64,000 bases of DNA, taken from the IMG/VR virus record IMGVR_UViG_3300046386_000047, one strand, 5' to 3'. Each line of letters opens with the position of its first letter. Position 1 is the first letter of the stretch. This DNA is from an uncultured virus (IMG/VR IMGVR_UViG_3300046386_000047) (lineage: Duplodnaviria; Heunggongvirae; Uroviricota; Caudoviricetes). The notes below the pieces were generated by a model. That model searched no databases and was not told where the DNA came from. It worked only from the letters and a program-made list of their open reading frames with translations. This document shows, piece by piece, positions 1,543 through 55,174 of this stretch. The position numbers were made by a program, and so were the translations under genes.

Positions 1543-2130
1543 ATGCACAATTCTTTAAACGCCGACCAGTTTATCCGTGGCCTAGCGCTTTCCATCGCTA
1601 GAAATATTGTCGGCGCTATGCGTCCGGAGTCCGAAGTGCTTGCCCATGAGGGGCTAACAGCGCAGGAGTACGCTGAGATAAAGAAAAACCCGATGTTCCA
1701 GCGGTATGTGGACTCATACGCAGCCGACTTGCGGGAGAACGGCTACTCGTTTGCAGCGAAAAGCAAGTTGCTGGCTGAGGATTTGCTGCCAACTGCATAT
1801 CACATGGCGAGAGACCCAGACACTCCAGCAGCTACACGAGCCAAGTTGATTGAAGACTTGGTGGAGTGGGCTGATTTGAAGCCTAAGAAGACAGCAGACA
1901 CTTCGCAAGGCAACGGTTTCAGCATCGTTTTCAACATCCCCGGCGCTGTCACACAGATTACGGGGGTTGCCGCTGCAAATTCTGGTGCTAATGTCGTAGA
2001 TGTCACGGACGTTATGCAGATTCCAGAGATAGCAGCGCTTCCAGCGTTTGGAAAAAAGCGAGCGCCAACTAACATTTTGCTCGACGAGCCTGACAGCTAT
2101 GAGTACGCCGGAGAGGACTACTTAGGATGA
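1543..2130 (+). CDS. Putative terminase small subunit
   Basis: Position upstream of terL, helical protein; ATG at 1543 preferred to TTG at 1510. Confidence 0.55.
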   Translation: MHNSLNADQFIRGLALSIARNIVGAMRPESEVLAHEGLTAQEYAEIKKNPMFQRYVDSYAADLRENGYSFAAKSKLLAEDLLPTAYHMARDPDTPAATRAKLIEDLVEWADLKPKKTADTSQGNGFSIVFNIPGAVTQITGVAAANSGANVVDVTDVMQIPEIAALPAFGKKRAPTNILLDEPDSYEYAGEDYLG

Positions 2131-2768
2131 CCTCGATGCGTATACCAGACCCACTGCATATTCTGGCGAAGCCGGGTGTGTATATGATCCAGTGCAAACT
2201 AGACAAGCGAATGTATATAGGTTCGTCTGTGAATGTCCGAAAGCGACTGCAAAATCATGTGTCTTCGCTGAACAAAGGTACTCACCACTCCCCACATTTG
2301 CAGAGAGCTTGGAGTAAGTACGGTAAAGACATGTTTGAGCTTGTCGCGCTTGGATACTACGCCAAAGACCGAATTCGCGAAGAGGAACAAGTATGGCTAG
2401 ACGAAGCAAAATGCGCGTTTAATGGCAGTAGGTTGGCTACACGCCCTGAGCACACCCCCGAGGCTTTAGAGAAAATTAGCGCGGCGTGTAAAGCTGCATG
2501 GCAGCGGCCAGAGCACAGGGCTAAGATGATGCTACGGACTTACACGCCAACGCGGGCAGGGACCAAAGCTGACGACGAGCTTAAGGCAAGGCTAAAAGAA
2601 ATCCACAGAGCCAAACACAGAAACATCCAAGCATTTGGGAAACTATGGTCTATCAAGGAACTTGCCGAGGAATATGACGTGAAGTACACAATGCTTAAAG
2701 ATAGACTCCGCGCAGGCTGGGAACCTGAGCTGGCCGTGCAGCAACCCAAGCGCGAAGGGGGTCTGTAA
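2127..2768 (+). CDS. GIY-YIG homing endonuclease
   Basis: GVY...YIGSS...R motif, HHSPHLQRAWSKYG, C-terminal small HTH-like DNA-binding segment. Confidence 0.9.
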   Translation: MTSMRIPDPLHILAKPGVYMIQCKLDKRMYIGSSVNVRKRLQNHVSSLNKGTHHSPHLQRAWSKYGKDMFELVALGYYAKDRIREEEQVWLDEAKCAFNGSRLATRPEHTPEALEKISAACKAAWQRPEHRAKMMLRTYTPTRAGTKADDELKARLKEIHRAKHRNIQAFGKLWSIKELAEEYDVKYTMLKDRLRAGWEPELAVQQPKREGGL

Positions 2769-4207
2769 TGCAGTACACTCCAGTACCCTCTGTTGTTCCG
2801 TACTTGCTGAGCGATAAGTTCCAGTCATTTATTGTCGGACCGATTGGGTCGACCAAGACAACAGCGAGCATCATGAAGATTGCATTGGAGGCCAAAAAGA
2901 TGGCAGCGTGCAAGGATGGTATCCGCCGATCCCGTGTAGCCGTAGTGCGAAACACGCGCCAGATGCTGCTTGACTCGACTGTGAAAGACTTCCTGAACAT
3001 ATTTCCAGAGGGACAGGCTGGCGCATACATGCGCACAGAACTAAAGTTCATCCTGAAATTTGACGACGTAGAGGCGGAGATTCTATTCAGGGGCCTTGAT
3101 GATGCCAATGACGTGCGTCGTCTCTTGTCGCTGCAGCTGTCGTTTGCCATGGTGGACGAGGTGCGCGAGATCAACTCAGACGTGTTCGACGCGCTGACAG
3201 GCCGACTGGGTCGTTATCCCAACGGGATGCTTGTCCCACATAGACCAGAGTGGGGGGTCGATGAGAAAGGCAACCCAATTCAGGGCTGTGTGGACGACAA
3301 GGGCAACCAGATGAAGAAGGTCTGGGGCGCGACCAACCCGGCGGACGCAGATACGTTTTGGGAAAAACACCTAACAGACTTCGACCCAGAAAAAGTTCAT
3401 GTCACCATTCAACCGTCAGGGCGGTCACAAGACGCAGATTGGCTTAAGCACTTGCCGTCAAACTACTACGAAGACTTGATGGTCGGGAAGACCGACAGCT
3501 GGATTTCTGTGTATGTAGACGGCAAGTGGGGTGCATCCCTTGCAGGGCAGCCGGTGTTCCGTAGCTTCGACAGTTCGTACCACGTGGCGAGTAATCCGCT
3601 CAACCCCATTTTGAACGGGATGAGGCCTGTGCTGATCGGCATGGACTTCGGGTTGAACCCCAGCGCTGTGATTGGCCAGATAGACGCGCTTGGACGCTTG
3701 CTGGTGTTTCGCTCCCTCACGGCAGACGGCATGGGCTTGCTCCGGTTCCTGCGCACCATACTCAAACCAGAGCTGGCGCAGAGTTTTCCCAGCGCTCCCA
3801 TACTGGTCATCGGAGACCCAGCGGGAACAGCGCGGGCGCAGACGGACGAGAAGACCGTGTACGACATCCTCGAGCAAGAAGGACTGCTGGCCAAGCCCGC
3901 ATACACCAACAGCATCATCGCCCGGATCACGGCAGTCGAGCAGTTCCTCAACAGACAGGTGGACACAGGCCCCGGTATTCTCATCGACCCCAGCTGCAGG
4001 CCACTCATAAACGCGCTGCGGGGCAAGTACCGCTACAAAGTCAAGAACAACGGTGAGACGGACGACACGCCGGACAAAAATGAGGCATCACACATCGCCG
4101 ATGCCATGCAGTACCTGTGCCTGCACGCGGATGCGCAGCAGGGGGGTAGGATGTCCAGAAACAAGGCTCGGGCAATTGAGAGCGTGTCCATGGAAGCGTG
4201 GACTTAG
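2768..4207 (+). CDS. terL: Terminase large subunit
   Basis: Walker A GPIGSTKT, Walker B AMVDE, ATNP coupling motif, nuclease motifs GMDFG, GDPAG and HIADAMQY. Confidence 0.93.
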   Translation: MQYTPVPSVVPYLLSDKFQSFIVGPIGSTKTTASIMKIALEAKKMAACKDGIRRSRVAVVRNTRQMLLDSTVKDFLNIFPEGQAGAYMRTELKFILKFDDVEAEILFRGLDDANDVRRLLSLQLSFAMVDEVREINSDVFDALTGRLGRYPNGMLVPHRPEWGVDEKGNPIQGCVDDKGNQMKKVWGATNPADADTFWEKHLTDFDPEKVHVTIQPSGRSQDADWLKHLPSNYYEDLMVGKTDSWISVYVDGKWGASLAGQPVFRSFDSSYHVASNPLNPILNGMRPVLIGMDFGLNPSAVIGQIDALGRLLVFRSLTADGMGLLRFLRTILKPELAQSFPSAPILVIGDPAGTARAQTDEKTVYDILEQEGLLAKPAYTNSIIARITAVEQFLNRQVDTGPGILIDPSCRPLINALRGKYRYKVKNNGETDDTPDKNEASHIADAMQYLCLHADAQQGGRMSRNKARAIESVSMEAWT

Positions 4208-25969: not shown

Positions 25970-28900
25970 ATGCCCATTTACAGCGTACAAGGCCCCGATG
26001 GGCGTATTTATGATGTGGAGGGGCCAGCCGGAGCTTCCGAAGAGCAGATCATTGCGGTCATCCGGGGGCAGTTGCCGAAAGCCCCAGCGCAGCCAGCGCA
26101 GGACACCACCGGATTCAAAGCTGCCGCAGCTGCAGGCTTTGAGCGCCTCAAGGGCGAGACCGCGCTGACTGCCGGTAAGCTGGGCCTGATGGACACTGCC
26201 GCCGCTGAGCAGTACCAGAAACAAAAAGAAGCCGCTGCCCAGCAGCGCTTCACTCCCACGCAAGACGGCTGGACCGAGTCTCCTTGGCAGAAGTTCAAAG
26301 AGACCGCTGGCGGTTCTGTTCCGTATGTGGCTGCCCCCGTTGCGGCCGCAGGTCTTGGCGCTTTGGCTGCCACAGGTGTTGGTGCTCCCGCCGCTGCCGC
26401 GTTGGCTGCCGGAGCTGGCGCGTTCGGTGCATCTGCCGGTCAATTCACGGGCTCCAACCTGTCCGCTCAGATGGACACAGGCAAGACGCTGGAGCAGACA
26501 AGCCTCGGCGCTGCCGTAGGCGCTGCGATTCCCCAAGCTGCGCTGGACACTGCCGCCATGGCCCTGATGCCCGGCGTGGGCAAACTGTTTGGCTCCGTGG
26601 GCTCCAAGCTCACCACCGCACAGGCCGAGGCCATCGCCAAGCAGACGTTGAGCAAAGCAGCCGCCGACTATGCCGCCAAGACTGGTACGGCCATGACCCG
26701 GGAAGGTTTCACAGAGACTGTGCAACAGGTTATGGAGCGACTGCAGGCTGGCACCAGCTTGACCGACGAAGACGCCCGCAAAGAGTACATCGACAGTTTC
26801 ATTGGTGGTGCGGTGCTGGGCGGTGTGGCCGCCCCCGTTGGCCGTTATGTGGAGCGCGGCGCAGCCAAAACCCAAGCGCAAGAAGCCCAGCAAGCGCGTA
26901 TGCGCGAGCAGCGCAAGGTAGCCGACGAAGAAGCCAAGGTGCTGGCAGCGGAGGAAGAAGCGTACAAACAGACAGACAAGTACGCGCTGGACGTGGAGCA
27001 GAAGTACCAAGCCGCCGAGCAGCAGAAGGCTGTCCTCAAGGCGCAGATCAAAAAGCCCGCGCAGGGCGAGAAGCTCAACGAAGCCGACAAGGCGTTCAAC
27101 GCCGACATCAACACCCAGCTCAAGGAGCTGCAGCCCACCGTCAAAGAACTGGGCCAAGAGTTCAACCGCACGGCCAAGGTGCGCGAGCAGGCCAAAGAGC
27201 AGCAGCGCGTTGCGGGTATGGACCCGTTCGACTACATGATGGAGCAGACTGGCGCGGTCCCCACATACAAGCCCAGCAAACCCGGCACGCTGCCGGAAGT
27301 TGACATGGAAGGTATTCCCGGCGCTGCGTCGGAGCAGCCCACAGCTACCCAAGAGAGTGTGCAAGCACTTAACACGTACGCAGCGGACCGCGTGCAGCTG
27401 GCACAAGAACAGCTCATCAACCCAACGCCGAAAGAGCTTGTTGACTACTTAATGCAAGACCCCACCATGGCCGACCAGATGGTCAAGACCCGCACAAAAA
27501 CGCCAAACTTGCCCCGTAAAGAAAACGAGCTGGTGCTGGAAGGGCTCAAACTACGTCTCAAAGACGTTGCCAAAGGTGCAAAGCAAGAAGCAGAGACACG
27601 CGCCGAAAACATTCAAGCCGGTATGGCCGGGGCGGCTCCCGGTTCCGAACTTATGGGTGCTGCGCGAGAGATGCCCGGCGTGCAAAGCGCGGCGCAAGAG
27701 CGCGCTGTTGAAGATGTGCGGATCGGTAAAGTGTTCCCCGAAACGGAAGCCTTGCGCCGCATTTCCGAGAAACCCCCCGCGTTTGTTCGCCAAGATGACA
27801 CACTGCCGTTGCGCGTTGATGCGCTGGTAGATTCGACGTTGCCGAGCAGTAACATTTCCGGCAGGGTTGTTTCAGGCACCACGGTCGATACCGCCACAGA
27901 AGCCGACACGCTGCGAGCCCAACTGGCATACGCCAACGTGACAGACAACCGCGAGCGGGCTAACGAGCTAAAGAAGCGGCTGGCTGATATGAACGAGCCG
28001 GACACCGAAGCGGCTGCAGGCGATCTTGATTTTGGCGCGCGCGCCAAACGCGCGGGCATTGAAGGCACACTGTCAAAAGCTGCTATGCAGGCCAACCGCA
28101 CAACGCGTTTGTCGAACAGCCAGCTTTCCGCATACGATAAGTTGGCTGACTTTGTACAACGTGTTCGTGAGAGCGATCAGGACATTTCTGATGCGCGTAA
28201 GCAAACTTTGACGGACGTTGCCGAACGCTTGAAAGAAACTGTGGTGGGAGGAGCGCTCAACGAAATTGACGCACGCCGTGCACAAGCGCAACTACCAGAG
28301 CTGCCCACGGCCGAGAAGGTGAAGATTGTTGGCCAGCTGAATGCAACGCTTGGCGAGTTGGTCGAGCGCGGTGCTGGTATTTTTCAGAAACCTGTTGAGC
28401 AAAAAGCACAGGTGCGCGGCACCAAGACCGTTGTCAGCGCGGGCGAAGATCAAGGCCAGCCTGTTGGACGTCGCGTATTCAACAACTTTGAGGCGGCAGC
28501 AAAAGCACTGCGTGGGCAGATGCGCGATACGCTTGACACGCTTGGTGGGTTTGAACCAAAAGAAGCTGCGCCGCGCATCGAGCGCAAAGTACAAAGAGCA
28601 ACGCCGGAATTGCGCCGCCAGTGGCAAGTCGCATCTGAGCGCGAGTTGGGTCAGCAGTTTGTTGCTGCGTATGACCGCGCCAAGTCCGACGAGGACTACC
28701 GCACGCTCAAAGACATCGAAGCCAAGTTCAGCAAACTTTCTGAGGCTGCGCAGGATGAGGCTATTGTCCAAGTGCGTCGCGTTGAAAACGGGCTGTCGCT
28801 GGAAGTGCGTGGCGCACTGAAAGAAGAGTTGATCGACCTGCGCGCTGCAGGCTTGAGCGAGACCGGACAGGCAGAGCTATTTGCAGGGGACTCTGAGAAG

Positions 28901-31900
28901 GCCAGCACCCGTACGACACCGAAACGTTTCTTGGCTTTTTTGGACAGCGGCAAAGTCCAAGGTTTGCGCTTCAAACTGGCGGAAGAGAACCGCGTGTTGG
29001 CGTTCCAAGAGAAGCGTGCGGCTACGATCGCACAAAAAGTTGCCGAAGAAAATGCTCGCACTGAAGCTACGGTACAGAAAATCTTGGCCAGCAATGCACG
29101 CTCTCCTGTTGAGAAAGCTAAGGACGCGCTGTCGCGGCTTGTTGGCCCAGAGAGTAAAGTAACGCAGGCTTTGCAGATGTCCAGCGAAATCAAGACGCAG
29201 CGTGAAGCAGCGCGCACTCGATTGCGCACCATGCTCAACCAGATTGAAGACGCCGAAAGCCGCGCACAGAAGCAGGTCGACGACATCCAAGAGCTGCTTA
29301 ATTACACCAACAATAAACTGACCGAGGTCAACGCGGAGAGCGGCTCCGGGGTTGCACCGAGCATGAACGATTTGGCGGTGTGGACGCAAGCGCGTGATAA
29401 CCAGTTGGGCGAACTCAAAAAAGCGCAGAAGGTTTTGGGCGCTGTTCAGAAGAGCTTGAAGGCCGCCCTTAACACGCAAGCGCGTGTTATTGAGGATCAT
29501 GCGAGCGACACCCTCGGTAACTCCATCATTCGAGAAGGTGCCAAGGCGCAGCGCAAGTATGACGCAGCCAAAGCCGCTCTTGAAAAAGCAGAGGCCGAAG
29601 AAAGAGAAGCACTGCGCGTGCTTCGCGCAGAACCAAAAAAACCTGCGGAAGCTAAGAAGACGACAGAAGAACAGGTCTTGGGGCGTCTGGGACCAGCTGC
29701 GAAAGTTGTAGGCGTTGAGCGGGTTTACCGTGACACGTCGGATGCTAACGTGCAGGCCTTAGTCGCCGATGAGCGCAAAAACATTGCGGCGGCCGAAGCT
29801 GCGCACGATGCTGCCAAAGAAGCTGGCAACAAGCTGGCCATGGAAAACGCGTTGCGCCGGATCGAGACTGCATACAACAAGGTGTACAACATCTTGAACA
29901 ACGCTCCCCTGCGCCGTGAAACACAGCTGTCCGACGCAGAAGTGAAAAACCAAGAAGCGTTTGACCGAGCACAGGCAAGTGCGGTTGAGGCCAATCTCAG
30001 GTTGTTTGAAGAGCAGGCAGGCGTTCGCCCATTGAAGATGACTGGCCGCAGGACGATCGCATCTGTGCGCAACGTCAAGTCCAACCGTATTGAGACGCAG
30101 ATCAAGCAAGAATCGGTGGCTGCGCAAGAAGCACGGGTCAAGCAAGAAGAAGCAACAGGGGTGTACCCCGCAAAGGCGCTTGAAGAGCTGGCCAAAGCTC
30201 GGGCCGCTCGTGCCGAAGCACAGCGCCAGATTGACTACATCGACGCAAACCCTGCCGCACCGCGCTCAGAAGCTAAACAGCGGCAGACAGCCGCGCGCGC
30301 TGCTGCGGTGGCCAAGCGTAAAGCGTTGGGCGCGCAGCTGAAATCTTTGGTTGCAGCACAACGTGAAGTTGTGGCAGAGGCGCGGCTTGACAATAAAGCC
30401 GTGAAAAAGTTGCGTAGCGAACGCCAAAAGATGGTTCGCAGCGCAGGCCGTCTGCAAGAAGCGATTGGGGAAGACAGCGCGCTGTACCGCGTGTCCACCA
30501 CCGCAGGCAAGGGCACTACGCCCCAGCGCCTTGCTGCCATCATCAAGCGCATGACTGGCGACTGGAAGAACGTGCCCAACATCGTGATGGCCGAGACGTT
30601 CGATGCGCTGCCTGCTGATCTGCAAGCCCAAGCAATTGCCGATGACGTGGCTGACTTTGTGCCCGGCATGTACAACCCCAACGACAACACCGTCTACTTG
30701 GTGGCTGAGAACCTGCACAGTGACGAGGACATCTACGCCACTGTGTCGCACGAGATTGCCGGTCACTACGGCCTGCGTGCAATGCTGGGCGGCGAGTACA
30801 CAGCCACCATGGACAGCATCTACGACGGCAACGCCGACGTGCGCGAGAAGGCCAAGGCCAAGATGGGGCGCATTCCGTCCCTGTCCCAGCAGACCGCCAC
30901 CGAAGAAGTCTTGGCTGATATGGCTGAGAACGCTCCGGCCGAACCCAAGGGCGCACTGCGCCAGTTGTACGACGCCATCAAGAAATGGTTCCGCGAAACC
31001 CTTGGCTTCGACGCTATGCCTGACAAGGCTCTGAAACAGATTGTGGAGAACGCCCGCAAGTACGTGATTGAGGGCACAGGCGGCAAGGCGGGCTCAGCAC
31101 CGAAGACCAAGTCTTTGTACAACGCCAAAGAACCCAAGTTTGCCAGCGATGCGCTGGCCGACGCCGGTAGTGTGTCACGCAAGGTGATCGCCGGACAGCG
31201 CGGTTGGTCTGACGCCATCAAGGAAGAAGGTCTGGGCATGGGTCTGGCCACGCGCTTGGTTGACCGCTTCGCGCCTCTGGAGAAAGCATCCAAGTTGATG
31301 GACTCGCTCAACGGCACCCAGATGATGTACTACGCCCGGATGTTCGACCAGAAGATGCACTTCTTGTCGCAAGCTGTCAGCAACGGCGCGATCGGTCTGG
31401 AGAAGAAGACACGCGCCGATGGCCGTGCCGAGTGGTTGGTTGAGAGCAAAGAAGGCGCAAGCATCAAGGGCGTCGTGGACATTCTCAAAGGTGCCAAGGA
31501 TTTGGTGGGCAGCGCCGATGGTGCCAGCCAACTGTTCTCCCTGTACACCGTGGCCAAGCGTGCCGAGCGCGTGGGCCTGAAGAAGATGAACTTCGGCGAC
31601 GCTGTGACACAGGCTGACCTGAACCGCGCCATGAAGGCCATCGACGAGACGCCCGGCTTGGCCAAAATCTTTGCCGATGCCCGCGACGAGTACAACGCCT
31701 TCAACAAGGGCATGGTGCAGTTTGCCGTGGACACGGGGGCTTTGCGCAAAGAAGTTGCTGCCAAGATGTTGCAGAGCGACGATTACGTGCCGTTCTACCG
31801 TGAGCGCGATGGCGGCGTTGAGATGGTGCTGGGCAACGAGACCATTGCCAAGATTGGCAACCTGAAGAACCAGCCGTACCTCAAGGAGCTGGTCGGCGGT

Positions 31901-33688
31901 GACGAGCGCATCATCGACTTCATGACCAGCTCGGTGCAGAACGCCAACATGCTGACCGACATGGCGCTGCGCAACCTGTCTACCAAGAGCGCCGCGTTTG
32001 AGCTGCGTGACATTGGCATGGCCAAGATCGGCAAGGGCACCGCCTCGGGCACCGACGTGGTCAACTTCAAAGACGGTGGCGAGGACTACCACGCTGTCAT
32101 CGACACCACAGGCGCAGGCTTCCCGGCTGAGCTGTTGGTCAAGGGCATGGAGGGTATTCCTTACCAGACCACATGGCTGACCAAGGGTATGGGGGCGTTC
32201 TCCAACGTGTTGCGTAAAGCCGTCACGCTGAACCCGGCCTACGCTGCACGCCAGCTGTTCCGCGACTCGTTGGCTGCTCCGCTTTTGTCCGGTGCAAACT
32301 TCACGCCGATCATGGGCGCACTCAAGGAGATCAACGGCATAGCCAACAAGACGCTGGAGCGCCGTGGCATCACGGGCGGCCAAGTGTTTACCGGCACTCA
32401 GGAAGATTTGACCGACACGCTGCGCCGCTTGAACGCCGGTGAGTCCGGTTGGCTCAAAGGCTTGGCCAAACTCGAAGCGCTGTCCATGGAAGCTGACGCG
32501 CTCAGCCGCCGCGCCCAGTACAACAGCTACATCCAGCAAGGCTTGTCCGAGATGGAGGCCACGTACATGGCGCTGGAGTCCATGAACTTCAGCAAGCGCG
32601 GCTCGTCACCTGCCATGCACTTCTTGTCCACAGTGATCCCGTTCTTCAACGCGCAGATTCAGGGCCTGAACGTGTTGTTCAAAGCCTTCACGGGCGACAT
32701 GCCGTTCAACGAAAAACTCAAGATTCGTGAAAAACTGTTGCGACGTGGCGCGGTCTTGGCCGGGGCCACCATGGTCTACGCCGCCTTGATGCAGGACGAC
32801 GAGACGTACAAGAACGCCACACCCGAGCAGAAGTACGGCAACTGGTTCATCCATGTGCCCGGCTTGGACGAAGCGGTCAAGCTGCCTATCCCGTTTGAAA
32901 TCGGCTACATCTTCAAGGCGCTGCCCGAAGCGCTCGTCAACATGATGGCCAAGGAAGACGGCGGCGAGGAAGCGCTCAAGGCGCTCAAGCAGATCGCACT
33001 GCAGACCATCCCCGGCGGTTCGTCGTACGGCATCCCGCAAGCACTCAAGCCGATGATCGAGGTGGTTCTGGGTAAGTCGTTCTACACAGGCCGCGATCTG
33101 GAGTCTGCCTACGAGCAGTCGATGGTGCCCGGCAAGCGCACGCGCGAGAACACCACGGACTTCGCCCGCACGGTGGGCGACATGTTCAACGTCTCGCCAA
33201 TCAAGATCGACGCGCTGATTCAAGGCTACACCAGCAGCACAGGTCTGGCGTTGGTACAAGCGCTCAGCTTCGCCATCCCAACACCGCCAAGCCCTGACAA
33301 GGCCGCGCTGCGTGCCTCCGAGATGCCGCTGGTGGGTAGCCTGTTCCAGCCGAAAGATGCTGGCGGCGTCATCAACGCTGCATACGAGCGCATGAACGAA
33401 GCCAAGCAGGTCAAGACCACGTTTGACGGGTTGATGGAGAAAGGTCGCACCGAGGAAGCGCGGCAGTTCTTGCAAGAAAATCTTGAACAGTTTGCCAACT
33501 CAGGTCTGGCCACCAACTTCACCAGCACGATGCAGAAGCTGTCTCAAGCTGAGCGCGCAGTCCGGGCATCCAATGCGAGCCCAGAAGCAAAGCGTGCCCA
33601 GCTCGACCAGATCAAGCAGACGAAGATCAAGATTGCCGAGGCTGTACGGGCGGCAAGTAAAACCACACCCCAAGCATCCCGTCCTTGA
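25970..33688 (+). CDS. Giant polyvalent or ejection protein with a zincin-like motif and an LPD38-like C-terminus
   Basis: 2572 aa; HEIAGHYGL...EEVLA metallopeptidase-like motif; C-terminal PFFNAQIQG...KLPIPFEIG segment. Confidence 0.75.
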   Translation: MPIYSVQGPDGRIYDVEGPAGASEEQIIAVIRGQLPKAPAQPAQDTTGFKAAAAAGFERLKGETALTAGKLGLMDTAAAEQYQKQKEAAAQQRFTPTQDGWTESPWQKFKETAGGSVPYVAAPVAAAGLGALAATGVGAPAAAALAAGAGAFGASAGQFTGSNLSAQMDTGKTLEQTSLGAAVGAAIPQAALDTAAMALMPGVGKLFGSVGSKLTTAQAEAIAKQTLSKAAADYAAKTGTAMTREGFTETVQQVMERLQAGTSLTDEDARKEYIDSFIGGAVLGGVAAPVGRYVERGAAKTQAQEAQQARMREQRKVADEEAKVLAAEEEAYKQTDKYALDVEQKYQAAEQQKAVLKAQIKKPAQGEKLNEADKAFNADINTQLKELQPTVKELGQEFNRTAKVREQAKEQQRVAGMDPFDYMMEQTGAVPTYKPSKPGTLPEVDMEGIPGAASEQPTATQESVQALNTYAADRVQLAQEQLINPTPKELVDYLMQDPTMADQMVKTRTKTPNLPRKENELVLEGLKLRLKDVAKGAKQEAETRAENIQAGMAGAAPGSELMGAAREMPGVQSAAQERAVEDVRIGKVFPETEALRRISEKPPAFVRQDDTLPLRVDALVDSTLPSSNISGRVVSGTTVDTATEADTLRAQLAYANVTDNRERANELKKRLADMNEPDTEAAAGDLDFGARAKRAGIEGTLSKAAMQANRTTRLSNSQLSAYDKLADFVQRVRESDQDISDARKQTLTDVAERLKETVVGGALNEIDARRAQAQLPELPTAEKVKIVGQLNATLGELVERGAGIFQKPVEQKAQVRGTKTVVSAGEDQGQPVGRRVFNNFEAAAKALRGQMRDTLDTLGGFEPKEAAPRIERKVQRATPELRRQWQVASERELGQQFVAAYDRAKSDEDYRTLKDIEAKFSKLSEAAQDEAIVQVRRVENGLSLEVRGALKEELIDLRAAGLSETGQAELFAGDSEKASTRTTPKRFLAFLDSGKVQGLRFKLAEENRVLAFQEKRAATIAQKVAEENARTEATVQKILASNARSPVEKAKDALSRLVGPESKVTQALQMSSEIKTQREAARTRLRTMLNQIEDAESRAQKQVDDIQELLNYTNNKLTEVNAESGSGVAPSMNDLAVWTQARDNQLGELKKAQKVLGAVQKSLKAALNTQARVIEDHASDTLGNSIIREGAKAQRKYDAAKAALEKAEAEEREALRVLRAEPKKPAEAKKTTEEQVLGRLGPAAKVVGVERVYRDTSDANVQALVADERKNIAAAEAAHDAAKEAGNKLAMENALRRIETAYNKVYNILNNAPLRRETQLSDAEVKNQEAFDRAQASAVEANLRLFEEQAGVRPLKMTGRRTIASVRNVKSNRIETQIKQESVAAQEARVKQEEATGVYPAKALEELAKARAARAEAQRQIDYIDANPAAPRSEAKQRQTAARAAAVAKRKALGAQLKSLVAAQREVVAEARLDNKAVKKLRSERQKMVRSAGRLQEAIGEDSALYRVSTTAGKGTTPQRLAAIIKRMTGDWKNVPNIVMAETFDALPADLQAQAIADDVADFVPGMYNPNDNTVYLVAENLHSDEDIYATVSHEIAGHYGLRAMLGGEYTATMDSIYDGNADVREKAKAKMGRIPSLSQQTATEEVLADMAENAPAEPKGALRQLYDAIKKWFRETLGFDAMPDKALKQIVENARKYVIEGTGGKAGSAPKTKSLYNAKEPKFASDALADAGSVSRKVIAGQRGWSDAIKEEGLGMGLATRLVDRFAPLEKASKLMDSLNGTQMMYYARMFDQKMHFLSQAVSNGAIGLEKKTRADGRAEWLVESKEGASIKGVVDILKGAKDLVGSADGASQLFSLYTVAKRAERVGLKKMNFGDAVTQADLNRAMKAIDETPGLAKIFADARDEYNAFNKGMVQFAVDTGALRKEVAAKMLQSDDYVPFYRERDGGVEMVLGNETIAKIGNLKNQPYLKELVGGDERIIDFMTSSVQNANMLTDMALRNLSTKSAAFELRDIGMAKIGKGTASGTDVVNFKDGGEDYHAVIDTTGAGFPAELLVKGMEGIPYQTTWLTKGMGAFSNVLRKAVTLNPAYAARQLFRDSLAAPLLSGANFTPIMGALKEINGIANKTLERRGITGGQVFTGTQEDLTDTLRRLNAGESGWLKGLAKLEALSMEADALSRRAQYNSYIQQGLSEMEATYMALESMNFSKRGSSPAMHFLSTVIPFFNAQIQGLNVLFKAFTGDMPFNEKLKIREKLLRRGAVLAGATMVYAALMQDDETYKNATPEQKYGNWFIHVPGLDEAVKLPIPFEIGYIFKALPEALVNMMAKEDGGEEALKALKQIALQTIPGGSSYGIPQALKPMIEVVLGKSFYTGRDLESAYEQSMVPGKRTRENTTDFARTVGDMFNVSPIKIDALIQGYTSSTGLALVQALSFAIPTPPSPDKAALRASEMPLVGSLFQPKDAGGVINAAYERMNEAKQVKTTFDGLMEKGRTEEARQFLQENLEQFANSGLATNFTSTMQKLSQAERAVRASNASPEAKRAQLDQIKQTKIKIAEAVRAASKTTPQASRP

Positions 33689-40933: not shown

Positions 40934-40934
<1 letters not shown>
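39372..40934 (-). CDS. SNF2-like SF2 helicase
   Basis: PGTGKT, IVDEAN, MTGTP, HGITLTAAD, QAIARADRKGQ. Confidence 0.92.
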
Positions 40935-41317
<383 letters not shown>

Positions 41318-42890: not shown

Positions 42891-45791
42891 TCAGTTTTTG
42901 GCCAACCCGTATCGACGGTGTGCGCCACCGTCAGCGGCCAGAGGAATCCCCGGCAAATACTTCGGCTCCATAGTCATTTGCGCCAAGACCCAAGTCTTAG
43001 CGAATTCAACCTCTTCGTCCGGCACAACAGAAATCAATTCGTCGTGCACTGTGCCCTTCACAGGGTAGCGCTTGTCCACGCGCAGCATGCCGTCAGTCAT
43101 CACAATGCGGGCTACGCCCTGCACGATGTTGTTCGTTATCTTACCAGCATACAGCTTCGTTGCGTCTTCGCCGTACACCCACTGCAAGCCACCATCTTTT
43201 TCGTTGCCGTCTTCGTCCTTGACCTTCTCCCTGACTTGTCGCAGGTTGGGGTACAGCAGACTCATGCCGTTGGGCAGCACGATTTCTTCCTTGCGGAAGG
43301 TGACGCACTTGTATGTGACTTCCTCGCCGCCGTGCAGTGAGCGCGAGATCAACGAGCCGCACATGTCCCAGAACGCAACGACAGGCCACGCAGTGGAGCG
43401 GTACTTGTCGATAATCATCTTGGCTGCCACGCAGTGCACCAACAACTCAGCGTCTGTGCAGGTGTGCGGAATCTCCGTCATCTTCTTGACGTTGTCGTCC
43501 CACTCAAGAAACTTCTGTATGTACGTCGCGGTAACGCCGAGCTTCTTTGCGAAGTCTTTGTCGTAGCGTTGAGGCGGCGCACCGAGGAAACCCACGAGTA
43601 GCTGGGCGGCGAATGAAGCCCAGCCCAGTCCGTACCCGCAGTTGTGCACAATGATCGGCCCGTACCATGTGAGCACAGTGTACCTATTTCTTGGCCCTGC
43701 GTAGGCGATGTCGTAGGTCTGCATTCTCTGCTTCAAGGGCGGCGATCCGCTGTCTGAGCGCTTCGACTTCTCGCGCAGTAATGCGTCGTTTGTTGGACAT
43801 GTTGACGCTACGGCTGACGAATCGCAGGTTGCCGGGCTCATACCCCCCGTTGTTATCGATTCGATCGAGCTGGAGTTCAGGTCGATCCCAGCCGCTAAGC
43901 CCGACGAGGTAACGAAGGAACTCAACGCGGTTCTCAACCCATCCTTGGTGAACGGTAATCCCGCGCCCACCGTAGTCTGGGTACACGGCACTATTCGGGT
44001 TTGTGCATCTGACGATGATGGCGCTAATGCGGTCCAGCAATCGGTCACGATGGCATCGATCAGGGCAGACCACGTAGTACCCTTTTTGTTCCCATCGAGT
44101 CTCGACAGCCTTTCTTTTAGCGCAGGCATTGCAGCGCTTAGTGCGCCCTGCAACAAGGTTGTAGCGGTCGACAAACCCTGACCACCCACAGGAACACTGC
44201 ATAACAGGATGGAATCCACCAGTTGCCTTGCGGCTCCAACGGAGACAGGTGAGCTCCCCAACGACAGCGCCGACTTCAAAAGGGAACGGTTTGCTAGGGC
44301 CGCGCTCCACTCCACCCACCCATGTTCCGTCAAGATTTCGTGGTCCGAGGTTGCGCTGATCCCCGCTGCTGTCAGCACTTCCTTTTCGCCTTGCGGCACT
44401 AGTCCTTGGTGACATACCCACTCCTCTCCATCCCAGACCGTATCCGTAGCCTGCACTCGTACTATAGGCACCCAGCCACGGTTTGTCAACACCGGCGTGT
44501 TCGGACCAAAGCAACCCAGTAGTGCCGACTTCGCCGACTGCCGGAGATCAGGGTGTGACTCTTTTGTAAGGCCCGGTATGTTGAACATCTGAGCGCCGAA
44601 CGCTGCGTAAGGATCACCGCCTTGCCGGAAGATGAGTAACATGTCCTCGTAATCAGCCAGCCACGCAAGAACTCGCGGTTCAATTTGTGACAGATCGCCG
44701 ACGACCAGTTGGTGCCCTTCGGGAGCCATAATAGCTTTGCGCAAGAACGACCCTCGCTTGAGGTTCTGCATGTTGATGGCACTGCCCTTTGATGCCGTCC
44801 ACCGGCCTGACTTAGCCCCATAGTAAGAGAGCGGGACAGGCAATCTTCCGCGCTTCGAGATGTCCAGAAACCGCTGCGCCCGCGTACGCTCAGTGGTCGA
44901 TTTAACTTTGAGGCGAGCCTCACACAAAGCGGCAACGTCTTCATTGTCCCCGTTGAGCATCGCTTGAAAAAGCGCGTCATTCTTTGCAAGTGCAAGCGTC
45001 TGCTTACCAGTCGTCTTGCTTTTCTTGTAGGGTGGGGGCATGCCGAGTCCGCGCAGGACTTCAGCGAACTGTTTGTTGGAGGCGAGTGACGATTCATCAA
45101 CGCCGATCTTTTGTAGGAGAGCTTCACGTTTTTCCTTTTCATCGTACAACGCGTCAGTGAGCATGCTCTGATCCAACTCCAGCACAGGGCGGGTGTACAT
45201 CTTGAGCGTCATGTCGATCAGGCGCAGTTCCTTGGTGGGGTACGGGCCGCCGCAGTTGCCCGTCACAGGGTCGAGCTGCATCATGAGCTTGCTGAAAATC
45301 TGCTCGCACAAATACACGTCATGCGTACAGTACGCGGCGAGCTCACGCTCAGTCTGCGGGTCCAGCTCAAGCATGCCGTTGGTGTCGTGCACCGCGCGGC
45401 CTTTGTCAGGCAGGCCGAAGGCTTGCGCCAGCTTCATCAACGAGTTGCCGACTTCAACTCCGCGCAAGGCCCGAGCCATAGAGAGGCTGTCAAAGATAAA
45501 ACACGGGTGCGCGTCATAGACCCACTCCATGATCGAGACGTCGAACTGCGCGTTGTGAGCGAGCACAGCGGTGCGGCTCCAGTCGATGCTGTCGAAGTAT
45601 GCTGGCAAGTCGTCGTGTCTGATCCAAGGTGCTTTGCCTTCTGATCCGAGTTCGTGGGCGCATGCGCCGAATGCTTTGAAACGTGGGTCACGAATATATT
45701 CTTCCGTAGTTAATTTCGAGAGTGTGTAATCGTTGCTGTTCCAGCGCGTCTCGAAGTCGAGCGCGATGATCTTGTCGTATGGGCGTGCCAT
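42891..45791 (-). CDS. polA: Family A DNA polymerase, intein-containing precursor
   Basis: Exonuclease motifs LDFET and AHNAQFD; motif A DLSQIEPR; motif B RQSAKSALLG/CGYG split by the intein; motif C TVHDE; start MARPYDK coupled to the upstream stop. Confidence 0.93.
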   Translation of the reverse strand: MARPYDKIIALDFETRWNSNDYTLSKLTTEEYIRDPRFKAFGACAHELGSEGKAPWIRHDDLPAYFDSIDWSRTAVLAHNAQFDVSIMEWVYDAHPCFIFDSLSMARALRGVEVGNSLMKLAQAFGLPDKGRAVHDTNGMLELDPQTERELAAYCTHDVYLCEQIFSKLMMQLDPVTGNCGGPYPTKELRLIDMTLKMYTRPVLELDQSMLTDALYDEKEKREALLQKIGVDESSLASNKQFAEVLRGLGMPPPYKKSKTTGKQTLALAKNDALFQAMLNGDNEDVAALCEARLKVKSTTERTRAQRFLDISKRGRLPVPLSYYGAKSGRWTASKGSAINMQNLKRGSFLRKAIMAPEGHQLVVGDLSQIEPRVLAWLADYEDMLLIFRQGGDPYAAFGAQMFNIPGLTKESHPDLRQSAKSALLGCFGPNTPVLTNRGWVPIVRVQATDTVWDGEEWVCHQGLVPQGEKEVLTAAGISATSDHEILTEHGWVEWSAALANRSLLKSALSLGSSPVSVGAARQLVDSILLCSVPVGGQGLSTATTLLQGALSAAMPALKERLSRLDGNKKGTTWSALIDAIVTDCWTALAPSSSDAQTRIVPCTQTTVGAGLPFTKDGLRTALSSFVTSSGLAAGIDLNSSSIESITTGGMSPATCDSSAVASTCPTNDALLREKSKRSDSGSPPLKQRMQTYDIAYAGPRNRYTVLTWYGPIIVHNCGYGLGWASFAAQLLVGFLGAPPQRYDKDFAKKLGVTATYIQKFLEWDDNVKKMTEIPHTCTDAELLVHCVAAKMIIDKYRSTAWPVVAFWDMCGSLISRSLHGGEEVTYKCVTFRKEEIVLPNGMSLLYPNLRQVREKVKDEDGNEKDGGLQWVYGEDATKLYAGKITNNIVQGVARIVMTDGMLRVDKRYPVKGTVHDELISVVPDEEVEFAKTWVLAQMTMEPKYLPGIPLAADGGAHRRYGLAKN
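43641..44513 (-). mobile_element. Intein (291 aa) in polymerase motif B
   Basis: Block A CFGPNTPVLTNRG, block B ATSDHEILT, block F TYDIAYAG, block G IIVHN followed by Cys+1; removal restores KSALLG-CGYGLG. Confidence 0.93.
43684..44415 (-). CDS. HNH-type homing endonuclease in an alternative frame inside the intein
   Basis: GELT...CSCG...NL..GRTKRC; RCTNPN..YPDYGGRGITV...W; LDRIDNNGGYEPGNLRF...N; GGAGAGGAG 5 nt before the ATG at 44415. Confidence 0.87.
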   Translation of the reverse strand: MSPRTSAARRKGSADSSGDQRNLGPRNLDGTWVGGVERGPSKPFPFEVGAVVGELTCLRWSRKATGGFHPVMQCSCGWSGFVDRYNLVAGRTKRCNACAKRKAVETRWEQKGYYVVCPDRCHRDRLLDRISAIIVRCTNPNSAVYPDYGGRGITVHQGWVENRVEFLRYLVGLSGWDRPELQLDRIDNNGGYEPGNLRFVSRSVNMSNKRRITAREVEALRQRIAALEAENADLRHRLRRAKK

Positions 45792-46078
45792 CAGTTGTAC
45801 ATCCCGTGTTCGGGAGCCTCTGCTTTGATCTCTGTGTTCAGGATGACGGCCGCTTCGCTGACCAGCCCGGCGACCTCGAACTCGTTGGCGTTGATGCCCA
45901 CCGAGATAAATTGCGCACCATCGGCAAGGAGCAGGGCACCGCGCCACTGTGCGTCTTCGCCGTAGCACTTGGTCAAGATCGTCAAAATGCTGGCGAAGTG
46001 TTCTTTCTGTTGAGTGCTCATGACGTCCGCCACCTTCTCGATGGCTGTCATGGCGTTGCGTGTGATTTCTTCGTTCAT
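45791..46078 (-). CDS. Hypothetical protein
   Basis: AAGGA RBS, coupled to neighbours. Confidence 0.75.
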   Translation of the reverse strand: MNEEITRNAMTAIEKVADVMSTQQKEHFASILTILTKCYGEDAQWRGALLLADGAQFISVGINANEFEVAGLVSEAAVILNTEIKAEAPEHGMYN

Positions 46079-46377
46079 GATTTTCCTTGCATGTACCGTA
46101 TCAACGGCATGAATGCGTCGAGGTTCTTTTCGTTGATGACCATGGCGATACCCCCGGCACTACCAATCTTGGCAATGTGCGCGTCTTGCAGCGCCGTCGT
46201 TGTGCCCCTGCCTGCCTTGGCTTCGATGGCCAAGAACTTGCCTGCAACACAGCACAGGAAGTCAGGCACACCGCTGTTGCCGTAGCCGGTGCCCATGGGC
46301 ATGGCGTAGTAGACGCCCTCGGCGTCCAGTATCTTTCTGATCTGCTTCTTAACAAGTGATTCAGGAGTTGCTGCCAT
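46075..46377 (-). CDS. VRR-NUC domain nuclease (resolvase-like)
   Basis: TPE..VK, GVPDFL, IEAKA, LQ motifs. Confidence 0.85.
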   Translation of the reverse strand: MAATPESLVKKQIRKILDAEGVYYAMPMGTGYGNSGVPDFLCCVAGKFLAIEAKAGRGTTTALQDAHIAKIGSAGGIAMVINEKNLDAFMPLIRYMQGKS

Positions 46378-46957: not shown

Positions 46958-47419
46958 TCATTTCAGACTCCTGCAAAATTTTTGTATGTGCCGCTTTGTG
47001 AGACGCAGCACCCCGGCATGCACCTTGCGGTGGCAGTTAGAACACAGCAGCACACATTTACCCGCTTCTCGCAAAAACGTGGAAAGCGTCGCACTTGCCG
47101 CAGGATTCCGCTCTTTCGTGTCGGCGTCAAGCTGGTGCATGTCCAACACCCAAGGCTCGCTCTCGCCACACACCGTACACCCCCGCGCCCGTTTCCACTC
47201 CGCAATTTCACGGCGTTTCTCGTCCATGCGCTCCTGCATCTGTGCATAGTTCGCTTTGGTGTATTCCCGCATGTACTGTGTGGCGTAGCCGGGGTGTTCA
47301 AGCCGCCATTGACGGCTCCTCTCAGCCACACACATCTTGCACTGCGACCGCAGACGTCCTCCGTTTACAGGAAACGCCTCAAGCAGTTTTTCCTTGCCGC
47401 ATTTGGTGCATTTTTTCAT
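46958..47419 (-). CDS. Zn-binding HNH endonuclease
   Basis: CTKC, CKMC, CTVC...LDMHQLD...KCVLLCSNCHRKVH. Confidence 0.8.
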   Translation of the reverse strand: MKKCTKCGKEKLLEAFPVNGGRLRSQCKMCVAERSRQWRLEHPGYATQYMREYTKANYAQMQERMDEKRREIAEWKRARGCTVCGESEPWVLDMHQLDADTKERNPAASATLSTFLREAGKCVLLCSNCHRKVHAGVLRLTKRHIQKFCRSLK

Positions 47420-53438: not shown

Positions 53439-53632
53439 GCATCCCGCAACTCGTCGGTGAGCGGTCCGCTGGTTGTGAATTCCGCAAGGCAGTACGCAGT
53501 GCCCGACCCCCGCTTGGCCTCCACGATGTATGTGCGCGGCTTACCAAAGTGTGCGCGTTTGACCCGGAAGTCGTGCATGTCCTCCGTGGTGGGCTTGCAC
53601 AACGCCCACTGCGTAACCTCAACCGCGCTCAT
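53408..53632 (-). CDS. Hypothetical protein
   Basis: Coupled ORF. Confidence 0.55.
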   Translation of the reverse strand: MSAVEVTQWALCKPTTEDMHDFRVKRAHFGKPRTYIVEAKRGSGTAYCLAEFTTSGPLTDELRDACINLARCSS

Positions 53633-54822
53633 GGGCGAATCCTCAACACCTTGCCTGCGCGTGGCATGAAGTCATCGTTCTCGACAACACCCCACAACGT
53701 GGGCATGTCGGTCATGCGGTAGTCGGACTCGATGTAGCCATCGGTCAGCATGATGACAGCCTTGGCCTTGATCTTGTGCTCGGCCACATAGTCAGCAACA
53801 CACGACACAACAGTGCCGCCACCGCCCTTGGGTGCAAGCTGCGTGGCAATGTCTTGGTACTGCTCGGGCTTGAACACCTGATCGCCGCACACTGACGTGT
53901 CCCACCACAACATGCGCACGCTGTCAGGCCGTGTGTTCTGCACGATACGCGCCACCTCACCGAACACGATGGGGTATGCCCAGTGCATGGAGCCTGACGT
54001 GTCGCACGCAATGATGATCTCGCCCACGTTCTCGTCGAAGTGCGAAGGCATGATGAAGCCCGAGGCAAGCAGGCGCTTGTTGGGTGGACAGAAGCGTGAG
54101 TTCTCGTCGCCTACGCACACAGAGTTGATGAAGTCCTGCAACGCATCACGCCAGTTGGTCACGCGCTCCTGCGCTGTGCCGAGGATGTCACGGCCACCTG
54201 ATTCGTCGCCACGCATTTTGCGCACAAGCAACTCACCTTGGCGGTTGGCATCGTCGATCATCTTGCCCAGCTTCTCCTTCTCCTCGGCAGACATGGGCTC
54301 GCCTGTGCCGTCGTCACCCTCGCCGTCCATTTGGTGATCGTCCATGGATTGAGGTTGCTCCTCGGCATCCTTGAGCAGCTCCTGCAACACCTGCGGGTAC
54401 GACATACCCTTGAACTTGGGGTCGAACAAAATGTTGATCTTGTTGGGGAAGTCCATGAACTTGCGGTCAGGGTCAAGCTCGTCGATCAAGCCGTTGACCA
54501 CGAAGTCCATCGCCGCGTTGTTAATCTGCGGACCGAAGCGCTTGCTGTACCCGATGTACGTGGGCAAGACGCAGTGCTTGAGCGCAACGTGGAAGTTCTC
54601 GTGCAGCACAACGAAGCGCAGCTCCTTGCGTGTCAGGTCACTGATGAACTCGGAGCCGTACCACTTGTTCTTGCCGTCAGTGGCAGCAGTAGGCATGCCA
54701 TCCTTGATCTCGGACTTGCCCATGCACACGATGCCGGACAGCAGCGCGAACTTGTGGTGGCGCATCACGTCGATGTTGCACGCTTGGATTTTTTGGTTGG
54801 GTGTAAGTTTGTCAAAGCTCAT
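53629..54822 (-). CDS. Metallopeptidase-like plus VWA domain protein (DUF2201-like)
   Basis: TAATDG, HENFH (HExxH), MIDAS DTSGS, GGGGT, LTDG. Confidence 0.88.
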   Translation of the reverse strand: MSFDKLTPNQKIQACNIDVMRHHKFALLSGIVCMGKSEIKDGMPTAATDGKNKWYGSEFISDLTRKELRFVVLHENFHVALKHCVLPTYIGYSKRFGPQINNAAMDFVVNGLIDELDPDRKFMDFPNKINILFDPKFKGMSYPQVLQELLKDAEEQPQSMDDHQMDGEGDDGTGEPMSAEEKEKLGKMIDDANRQGELLVRKMRGDESGGRDILGTAQERVTNWRDALQDFINSVCVGDENSRFCPPNKRLLASGFIMPSHFDENVGEIIIACDTSGSMHWAYPIVFGEVARIVQNTRPDSVRMLWWDTSVCGDQVFKPEQYQDIATQLAPKGGGGTVVSCVADYVAEHKIKAKAVIMLTDGYIESDYRMTDMPTLWGVVENDDFMPRAGKVLRIRP

Positions 54823-55174
54823 GGTTGCTCTCCTGTTGAGGTTGTTGAAGTTCAGTTGGATGAAATAGCTCAGCCATCTTTGGTTCTGAGTACGAGACGA
54901 CGAAGTCCGACACACCGAAGTGCATGGCCCACAGCAGCGGCACAGTGTCCCGCGCTGCGTACAGCATGTCCTTGGTGTATGCGGCCTTGTCGAAGAACTC
55001 ACGGTGAACAAGGCGCAGAGCCTTGTCCTTGATGCCGCGCCCCACGTACAGCGAGATCGCTGCCTTGTACTTCGATGCAGTCACCCACACCTTGGACACG
55101 ATAACGATCTCACCGTCAGCGTTGCGGCAGAACAAACTGATGTTCTGACTCTTAGCGTATCGACTCGCGCTCAT
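54812..55174 (-). CDS. Hypothetical protein
   Basis: Coupled ORF. Confidence 0.6.
   Translation of the reverse strand: MSASRYAKSQNISLFCRNADGEIVIVSKVWVTASKYKAAISLYVGRGIKDKALRLVHREFFDKAAYTKDMLYAARDTVPLLWAMHFGVSDFVVSYSEPKMAELFHPTELQQPQQESNHEL

Follow-up and report, generated by a model that had tools for sequence, protein, structure and literature searches.

Introduction

Inteins are taught as single proteins whose splicing and homing parts are read in one frame. Here we analyse 64,000 nucleotides (nt) of DNA from an uncultured virus (IMG/VR record IMGVR_UViG_3300046386_000047; Duplodnaviria, Heunggongvirae, Uroviricota, Caudoviricetes), referred to below as the window, in which the family A DNA polymerase gene is interrupted by an apparent intein, and a second open reading frame (ORF), encoding an endonuclease-like protein, lies within that intein out of frame with the polymerase. 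An earlier note on this DNA, made from the letters alone, interpreted the locus as a dual-coded selfish element and knew of no description of such an architecture. The layout, an intein endonuclease encoded out of frame, is rare and already known, and is described in two preprints, of 2025 and 2026 (10.1101/2025.01.02.630785 and 10.64898/2026.09.14.751524).

The first of these reports inteins of actinobacteriophages with an endonuclease VII-like endonuclease "in reading frame 3" (Gosselin, Arsenault and Gogarten; 10.1101/2025.01.02.630785). Its authors call this gene previously unreported and propose that such elements originated when a free-standing endonuclease gene invaded a mini-intein. 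The second concerns the dnaX intein of cyanobacteria, in which a LAGLIDADG endonuclease is encoded out of frame (Phillips, DeSimone and Gogarten; 10.64898/2026.09.14.751524), and credits the first proposal to Gorbalenya 1998. Two further arrangements are related: a 2025 paper reports a hidden out-of-frame HNH gene in a phage methylase gene that has no intein, and fractured genes have, according to the excerpts of Dassa et al. 2009 (PMC2677866) cited here, split inteins parted by a free-standing endonuclease gene. Among nucleases, the relevant case is PacI, which the passages cited from PMC5714182 and PMC4081073 describe as a homodimeric beta-beta-alpha metal nuclease with Cys4 zinc motifs, in which an omega-loop tyrosine stands in place of the general-base His and an Asp and an Asn, one of each, coordinate the metal.

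In our reading, the present insert is a class 1 intein that is mobile and interrupts polymerase A in an environmental (freshwater) phage; its homing endonuclease is a separate gene nested in the -1 frame. We put the probability of this explanation at roughly 80%.

Selection on the two reading frames

The polymerase precursor gene, intein included, spans 42891..45791 on the minus strand, as do all features of the locus given below, with its ATG at 45791..45789 and its stop at 42891..42893; the listed ORF runs over 42891..45968, and the gene was taken from the ATG at 45791. It matches Pfam DNA_pol_A (7.4e-22) and phrog_17, DNA polymerase (5.5e-65). The intein occupies 43641..44513 (873 nt, 291 amino acids), is translated without a stop in the polymerase frame and is absent from related alleles. 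Nested within it, in the -1 frame relative to the polymerase, the endonuclease gene covers 43684..44415 (243 amino acids plus TAG; phrog_374, 3.6e-33). The ORF to which it belongs was listed as 43684..44514 (276 amino acids), one base out of phase with the polymerase, and its TAG (43684..43686) falls 43 nt before the end of the intein.

The double open frame exceeds chance. Both frames were open in 11 of 11 related sequences (L001-L008, L047, L092 and L093), and the window and all 11 relatives combined a complete nested endonuclease ORF with an intein frame that holds no endonuclease. When the nuclease gene was shuffled among synonymous codons, the polymerase frame remained free of stops in 0.04-3.6% of 5000 trials per sequence (6 sequences), and 2.5-5.6 stops were expected in it; the third frame over the nuclease gene would carry 9-22 stops.

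Purifying selection switches frame across the linker. The codon alignment comprised seven sequences, L003 being excluded as near-identical to the window and bearing a deletion, and L001 as too distant. Variation peaked at polymerase codon position 3 in the exteins and at both ends of the intein (residues 1-60 and the last ~25-40 residues); over intein residues ~61-265 the peak lay at polymerase position 2, i.e. nuclease position 3. Ratios of nonsynonymous to synonymous substitution (dN/dS) were obtained by the Nei-Gojobori method with the overlap ignored, and their values are comparative only. Linker dN/dS was 0.11-0.16 for the nuclease frame (three unsaturated pairs) as against 1.2-2.1 for the polymerase frame. 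For the exteins and the ends of the intein, the polymerase frame had values of 0-0.27 and the shifted frame values of 0.94-11.9, with polymerase-frame values of 0.02-0.22 for intein residues 1-55 and 0-0.23 for the last 25 residues. Amino acid identity to the window across the linker was 75% for L007, 65% for L008 and 42% for L001 in the nuclease frame, compared to 38%, 31% and 21%, respectively, in the polymerase frame. The earlier note had proposed to check whether homologues keep both frames open, with purifying selection on the nuclease frame across the linker, and this is what the relatives display: none has a stop in the nuclease frame, and its dN/dS there is the 0.11-0.16 given above.

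A sequencing or assembly error could in principle produce the same picture, if two compensating indels masked an ordinary intein with an in-frame HNH domain, as the earlier note had pointed out. Contigs from three independent DNA runs, each from a different study, match the window intein with 0-1 other letters and span it without gaps, and the nuclease lies in frame -1 of the polymerase in 10 independent sequences that include cultured Salmonella phages and EBPR siphovirus 2. We therefore regard the chance of such an artefact as practically nil.

One relative departs from the pattern. L003, which is the same IMG/VR contig as L012, has a 30-nt in-frame deletion at window ~44217..44246 in a polymerase that is otherwise identical to that of the window. 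The deletion takes ten residues of the nuclease barrel, GAVVGELTCL, a conserved Gly and Leu among them, together with ten residues of the intein linker.

Evidence for an intein

The insert splits the polymerase sequence LRQSAKSALLG/CGYGLGW, which we take to be motif B of polymerase A (R-x-x-A-K ... G-x-x-Y-G). The last 11 N-extein codons, LRQSAKSALLG (44514..44546), conserved in 80 of 80 related loci, would form the upstream half of the presumed homing site, and the first seven C-extein codons, CGYGLGW (43620..43640, with the +1 Cys at 43638..43640), its downstream half. As the earlier note had described, the intein is a stop-free insert of 291 residues that carries recognisable splicing blocks: it begins LG/CFGPNTPV, has TSDH at residues 55-58 and ends IIVHN/C, with His-Asn at residues 290-291 ahead of Cys+1. 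The N-terminal splicing region comprises residues 1-95 (44229..44513; Cys1 at 44511..44513, block B TSDH at 44340..44351) and the C-terminal one residues 247-291 (43641..43775; His-Asn at 43641..43646). All 7 inteins in the alignment share C1, T55 and H58. Between these regions, the linker (residues 96-246; 43776..44228) is read through in the polymerase frame and is unconserved in that frame. It is rich in S, L, T, A and G and has no Pfam match at E<=0.1, nor an NCBIfam match at E<=0.1 above chance level. The absence of an endonuclease domain from the middle of the intein frame, likewise noted before, holds for the family matches in Pfam, PHROGs and NCBIfam.

The intein-frame translation matches PHROG families over residues 17-87 only (phrog_93 and phrog_26005, 3e-6), its first 60 residues are 42% identical to the annotated intein of Salmonella Jerseyvirus vB_SenS-Ent1 (HE775250; Ent1 below), and the nearest protein-atlas clusters carry Hint_2 or Intein_splicing, with a top score of 0.94. 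A profile of the intein alignment found nothing significant among solved structures, the best relevant row being the Nanoarchaeum split-intein piece NEQ068 (E 0.59). The AlphaFold2 model of the intein frame, built from 7 sequences, has a pLDDT confidence score of 35.4 and is too poor to show linker disorder. The insert's classification as a class 1 intein is supported by the exact empty sites, the terminal residues together with block B, selection on the ends, the identity to Ent1 and the protein-atlas neighbours. Purifying selection in the polymerase frame on both ends and a site within a conserved polymerase motif suggest that the intein is removed by protein splicing.

Removal of the insert from RNA, as an intron, would be the alternative to protein splicing. 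A contig from X20, a wastewater metatranscriptome library, fits this idea in that exactly 873 nt are missing from it. The same contig has 23 flanking differences from the window (flanks ~95% identical), for which reason we read it as an intein-free relative, i.e. another strain, and not as a product of RNA splicing; intein-less alleles are, moreover, common in DNA (76/80). There was no Rfam match at E<=1 over 43300..44900, the polymerase frame is free of stops against expectation, and the ends of the insert are under polymerase-frame purifying selection and carry Cys1, TSDH and HN/Cys+1. These observations make an intron extremely unlikely, and protein splicing remains our reading.

Probable start of the nested gene

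The earlier note had taken the nested gene to run over the entire ORF, 43684..44514. Its frame and stop stand, and its start is revised: the likely start is the ATG at 44415 or the GTG at 44421. The presumed translation start (44413..44429) consists of a Shine-Dalgarno-like GGAGAGGAG at 44421..44429, a 5-nt spacer and ATG at 44413..44415; the alternative GTG (44419..44421) overlaps the intein's conserved Glu-Trp codons. In 10 of 10 sequences, a nuclease-frame start codon (ATG in 4, GTG in 6) lies at +93 from the first intein base, where a Glu/Lys codon contributes its final base and the conserved Trp codon of the block W-x-G-E-x-W-V its first two. The window group has a further ATG (44415) two codons after the +93 start, behind GGAGAGGAG. 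The first ~40 nuclease residues consequently overlap the N-terminal splicing blocks, where model confidence is low, and the last ~15 nuclease codons overlap the C-terminal splicing region of the intein.

We considered programmed -1 frameshifting as another route to the nuclease, which would then have no start of its own and would be a fusion with the N-extein and the intein's N-terminal portion. The nuclease frame is indeed the -1 frame, and in several loci it is open for 37-133 nt upstream of the intein. Elsewhere it is closed: nuclease-frame stops occur inside the intein at +86 in L001, +44 in L008 and +53 in L093, 7-49 nt upstream of the conserved ATG/GTG at +93. A search for slippery heptamers of the form X_XXY_YYZ from -90 to +330 found none in 7 of 10 sequences, and those in the other 3 are at non-equivalent places. 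Frameshifting is accordingly very unlikely. Since the start codon is conserved, stops lie just upstream of it and no slippery heptamer is conserved, internal initiation is the favoured route as judged by these comparisons, and the start at 44415 or 44421 is the one likely to be used.

The nested nuclease

Besides phrog_374, 'HNH endonuclease', the shifted ORF matches nine more PHROG families, which mostly carry the names HNH endonuclease, restriction endonuclease or endonuclease VII. For the nuclease frame, neither Pfam nor NCBIfam yielded a useful match. The designation 'HNH-type' in the earlier note therefore holds in part: because no Pfam HNH model matches the nuclease at E<=0.1, the label draws on the PHROG families, the predicted fold and a weak match to PacI. 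A large protein collection contained 996 relatives at E<=1e-5. One relative of the nuclease, P0124 (a predicted protein of 445 amino acids), is joined to a ThyX domain (PF02511), either as a genuine fusion or through gene calling that merged two neighbours.

An alignment of 63 relatives has invariant residues at C74, C76, C95, C98, R123, R129, R136, C137, Y148, R151, G152, W159, D184, R185, Y192, P194, N196, N205 and N208. The position of the general-base His is taken by Arg185 in 63 of 63 sequences. The earlier note had remarked on DRID in place of the usual motif, and the invariance of Arg185 makes this a trait of the family; it is also why we class the nuclease as one that would work like a PacI-type, His-less HNH enzyme rather than as a canonical HNH enzyme.

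The AlphaFold2 model of the nuclease (mean pLDDT 87.2) comprises a beta-barrel (50-81), a helical region, two strands (182-185 and 197-200), a helix (202-208) and a long helix (214-242). The small barrel and the invariant Cys74, Cys76, Cys95 and Cys98 fall within residues 41-98 (44122..44295); it has weak fold matches to Tudor/SH3-like barrels (Z about 5), and the Cys4 cluster may bind zinc. The beta-beta-alpha core corresponds to residues 182-208 (43792..43872) and includes D184, R185, Y192, N196, N205 and N208. The coiled-coil-type C-terminal helix, residues 214-242 (43690..43776), overlaps the C-terminal splicing region; coiled-coil matches in searches of solved structures fit this helix, through which the protein may dimerise. 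The homodimer prediction for residues 41-243 scored 0.33 against a mark of 0.42.

A Foldseek comparison of the nuclease model with the PDB had no match at E<=0.001, and the single nuclease sequence gave only chance-level matches to solved structures. PacI ranked first of 48,161 representative solved chains (root-mean-square deviation 3.7 over 89 residues, model residues 105-212) with a Z of 5.7, and the tool warns that a Z under 8 may represent a common arrangement. It was also the only non-coiled-coil match of the family profile to PDB sequences, with a weak E of 0.96. D184, Y192 (in the loop between the two strands), N196, N205 and N208 sit in fitting secondary-structure elements of the model. 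On the basis of sequence and model, D184, Y192, N205/N208 and the four cysteines would fit the PacI picture. Among viral predicted structures, 96 matched at E<=0.001, the first being an uncharacterized 247-amino acid protein of Salmonella phage LPSE1; others are named HNH endonuclease, homing endonuclease or AP2 domain protein. When longer, fused relatives were sought, only 4 proteins emerged, all of them free-standing, with repeated barrel or nuclease modules, and one joined to a ThyX domain; none is an intein precursor, which is weak evidence that an in-frame version of this intein and nuclease does not exist.

The loss of the catalytic His raises the question of whether the nested ORF encodes an inactive relic or a mere DNA-binding protein, incapable of cutting, in an intein kept by descent. 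Arg185 in 63 of 63 sequences, the failure to match a Pfam HNH model and the damaging 30-nt deletion of L003 would fit a relic, and some His-less groups of the superfamily are inactive according to the portion of PMC5714182 cited here. The same source and PMC4081073, to the same extent, describe PacI as active with a tyrosine replacing the His. Low dN/dS in the nuclease frame (0.11-0.16), the invariance of D184, Y192, N196, N205 and N208, and ~94% identical inteins that are scattered on the tree within 68-77% identical exteins, a pattern that needs active transfer, all argue against a relic. We judge the relic improbable, the least so of the alternatives weighed here, and continue to regard the nested ORF as a gene for a probably active nuclease.

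Distribution and mobility

The 80 closest polymerase loci in IMG/VR were compared at the insertion site. The intein is present in 4 of them (L012, L024, L025 and L047, the first three being contigs of L003, L002 and L006), and the other 76 lack exactly these 873 nt. The empty site has Cys at +1 (LLG/CGYGLGW) in 73 of 80 loci and Ala at +1 in 3 of 80. The latter alleles, L033, L054 and L075, read LLG/AGYGLGW; Ala at this position would deprive the intein of its +1 nucleophile, and such alleles may therefore resist productive invasion. Over the 36 nt on each side of the site, no difference was diagnostic of intein-bearing as opposed to empty alleles.

An extein tree was built from the 540 nt next to the site (83 rows, after two truncated rows were dropped). 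To explain the nine intein-bearing rows, the tree needs a minimum of 7 gains or losses, and well-supported branches force 6 of these. Several of the rows have intein-free sisters; 17 of 500 label shuffles require as few gains or losses as the intein does. Nucleotide identity of the intein between the window and L002, L004 and L005 is 94.8, 94.2 and 93.6%, respectively, compared to 68.5-76.9% for the flanking exteins (300 codons upstream, 200 downstream), and identity falls within ~30 nt of each intein boundary. Recent homing in which co-conversion tracts were short would be expected to leave such a contrast. Taken together, these comparisons demonstrate, at the level of sequence, that the intein has spread horizontally.

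Seven complete relatives are present in IMG/VR (L002-L008; nuclease identities of 96 to 67%), and L047 is an eighth. Among DNA runs, at least 19 contained close relatives of the window phage; 18 of these carry a freshwater label and one a soil label. A nucleotide search of the phage collection with 43300..44900 had no match. When the shifted ORF was compared by tblastn with 50,697 phage records, the best matches (~44% identity) were to Salmonella Jerseyviruses, where they fall within annotated polymerase inteins; 150 Salmonella phage records match. In Ent1, a feature annotated 'intein, encoding splicing domains' covers locus positions 2331..3227, and the nested ORF 2420..3166. The Ent1 record annotates the intein only; some other records have an 'endonuclease' or an uncharacterized protein at the same place. 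EBPR siphovirus 2 (L093) shares both the arrangement and the insertion site of the window. In APSE-2 (L092, EU794049), the P45 polymerase carries a homologous intein (2041..2958) at a second site, YGGKS/CENICQ, with a nested nuclease ORF (2225..2890) in the +1 frame that starts after block B. Across the relatives, two insertion sites and both alternative frames are thus in use.

Other features of the window

The window is a phage genome with a G+C content of 56.9%, and its gene set includes terminase, portal protein, tail fibre proteins, primase/helicase, helicase, exonuclease and the family A DNA polymerase. The phage is rich in endonuclease-like genes. Four more endonuclease-like ORFs lie at 2127..2768 (plus strand), 46075..46377, 46958..47419 and 53629..55011 (all minus strand). 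A phrog_314 'homing endonuclease' ORF sits directly upstream of the terminase large subunit and a phrog_93 'endonuclease' piece directly upstream of the polymerase, and phrog_2255 and phrog_1314, both 'HNH endonuclease' families, are also among the additional endonuclease-like ORFs of the window.

A stop-free stretch of 240 codons runs in the +1 frame of the N-extein at about 44489..45208 (minus strand); it is open in L002-L005 and closed in L006-L008. We rejected it as a gene: it has no wobble signal of its own, and its codon-position pattern follows the polymerase frame. It is probably a chance product of G+C-rich DNA. Elsewhere, a 127-amino acid ORF (40934..41317, minus strand) contains a run of 13 glutamines from a CAG/CAA repeat, which other frames read as poly-Ala and poly-Cys, and an ORF of 2572 amino acids (25970..33688, plus strand) has a PHROG match in its C-terminal third only (phrog_18222, function unassigned in PHROG, 4.6e-35).

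Discussion

Both frames of this element are conserved open, selection changes frame across it, and the intein has spread horizontally between polymerase genes. With no conserved slippery site and signs of recent transfer, these findings uphold the proposal of the earlier note that a nested, out-of-frame endonuclease makes this intein a dual-coded selfish element, in which the intein frame stays free of stops to allow production and splicing of the polymerase. In the mechanism that we propose, ribosomes in the polymerase frame would make the precursor, reading the nuclease DNA as an unconstrained linker rich in S, T, A, L and G that occupies the place of the endonuclease domain of ordinary inteins. 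The Cys1, TSDH and HN/Cys+1 blocks would then excise the whole insert and restore the polymerase motif. Other ribosomes would start internally, at GGAGAGGAG and the ATG at 44415, embedded in the W-D-G-E-E-W-V block, and release a free nuclease, whose N-terminus would be disordered and followed by a Cys4 beta-barrel, a helical region, a beta-beta-alpha metal core with Arg for His and a C-terminal coiled coil. The target of this nuclease would be the intein-less polymerase allele of a co-infecting relative, cut at the insertion site or close to it, and repair would copy the intein, nested gene included, into the cut allele.

Several points weigh against this explanation. Internal initiation, splicing, cleavage and the target site are all steps that we infer from sequence. 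Family models barely recognise the splicing domain: the window intein has no Pfam match at E<=10, and the intein of the EBPR homologue matches Vint (0.0081) and Hint_2 (0.07) below threshold in each case. The nuclease, for its part, matches no Pfam HNH model, has Arg185 where the general base should be and resembles PacI with the low scores given above. In L007 and L093, which are more distant relatives, the Shine-Dalgarno-like motif is weak or missing, and the extein tree covers just 540 nt and places L008 on a very long branch. Lastly, the deletion in L003 means that the nuclease gene can be damaged while the intein persists; the endonuclease may have begun to decay there in an intein that is still kept.

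A broader reading is that such elements form a stable, widespread class in phage polymerase A genes rather than a rare accident, with a hard-wired nuclease start and PacI-like tyrosine cutting, which would be a first among homing endonucleases. Besides freshwater phages, the proposed class takes in EBPR siphovirus 2, APSE and some 150 records of Salmonella Jerseyviruses, with at least two insertion sites and both alternative frames. If the class is real, every splicing-competent copy would also bear the nuclease start, because that start lies within the conserved Glu/Lys-Trp-Val codons. We consider this extension possible but hold it tentatively, as somewhat doubtful in its full form.

The case adds a well-supported and widespread example of an intein whose splicing and homing parts are separate genes on shared DNA, and it is relevant to a long-standing question, namely whether inteins originated through the invasion of splicing elements by free-standing endonuclease genes. 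For annotation it matters that most polymerase records here name the polymerase or the intein only and miss the nested gene. Since cultured Jerseyviruses carry the element and both allele types occur in nature, initiation, splicing, homing and His-less chemistry are directly testable. The literature covered, which takes in few subscription journals and no supplements of the preprints, contained no description of the polymerase A case, of the nested genes of Jerseyviruses or APSE, or of a His-less nuclease in such a role. Salmonella goes unmentioned in the text drawn on from 10.1101/2025.01.02.630785, a comparison limited to that text and outside its supplements.

How does this locus compare with the known systems? 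As described in the same preprint text, the actinophage inteins share with it a nuclease gene on the same strand, nested between the splicing blocks in frame 3, which is the -1 frame, as well as a linker without a recognisable fold and a sporadic distribution; an origin by invasion of a mini-intein, as proposed there, would likewise be common to both. In contrast, the hosts are actinophages there and phages of Gram-negative and environmental bacteria here, and the DNA polymerase that serves as host gene is polymerase III alpha there and polymerase A here. The actinophage nuclease matched residues 1-67 of T4 endonuclease VII, whereas the core here (182-208) is His-less with PacI as its best match, so that the nuclease appears to belong to another family. 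The cyanobacterial dnaX intein, on the portions cited, also has its endonuclease in another frame, a sporadic distribution and frame-dependent selection, dN/dS being low for the endonuclease frame and raised for the extein frame; it differs in its LAGLIDADG family, its cellular host and its host gene, dnaX.

The methylase case shares an HNH-type gene hidden in another frame, an open host frame and proposed internal initiation. It has no splicing domain and the insert stays in the protein, whereas here a complete intein surrounds the nested gene. Fractured genes, as presented in the excerpts of PMC2677866, have a free-standing endonuclease at the place of the endonuclease domain, whose coding sequence can overlap that of the intein by 6-69 bp; there the intein and host gene are split in two, while the present intein frame continues across the nuclease gene without a break. 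PacI itself (PDB 3m7k / 3ldy) has 142 amino acids and neither the N-terminal barrel nor the coiled coil. A further counterpart is Ent1, which has a homologous intein at the equivalent site and a homologous nested gene in the same frame (44% nuclease-frame identity), carried by a polymerase of a different lineage whose N-extein is 42% identical to that of the window.

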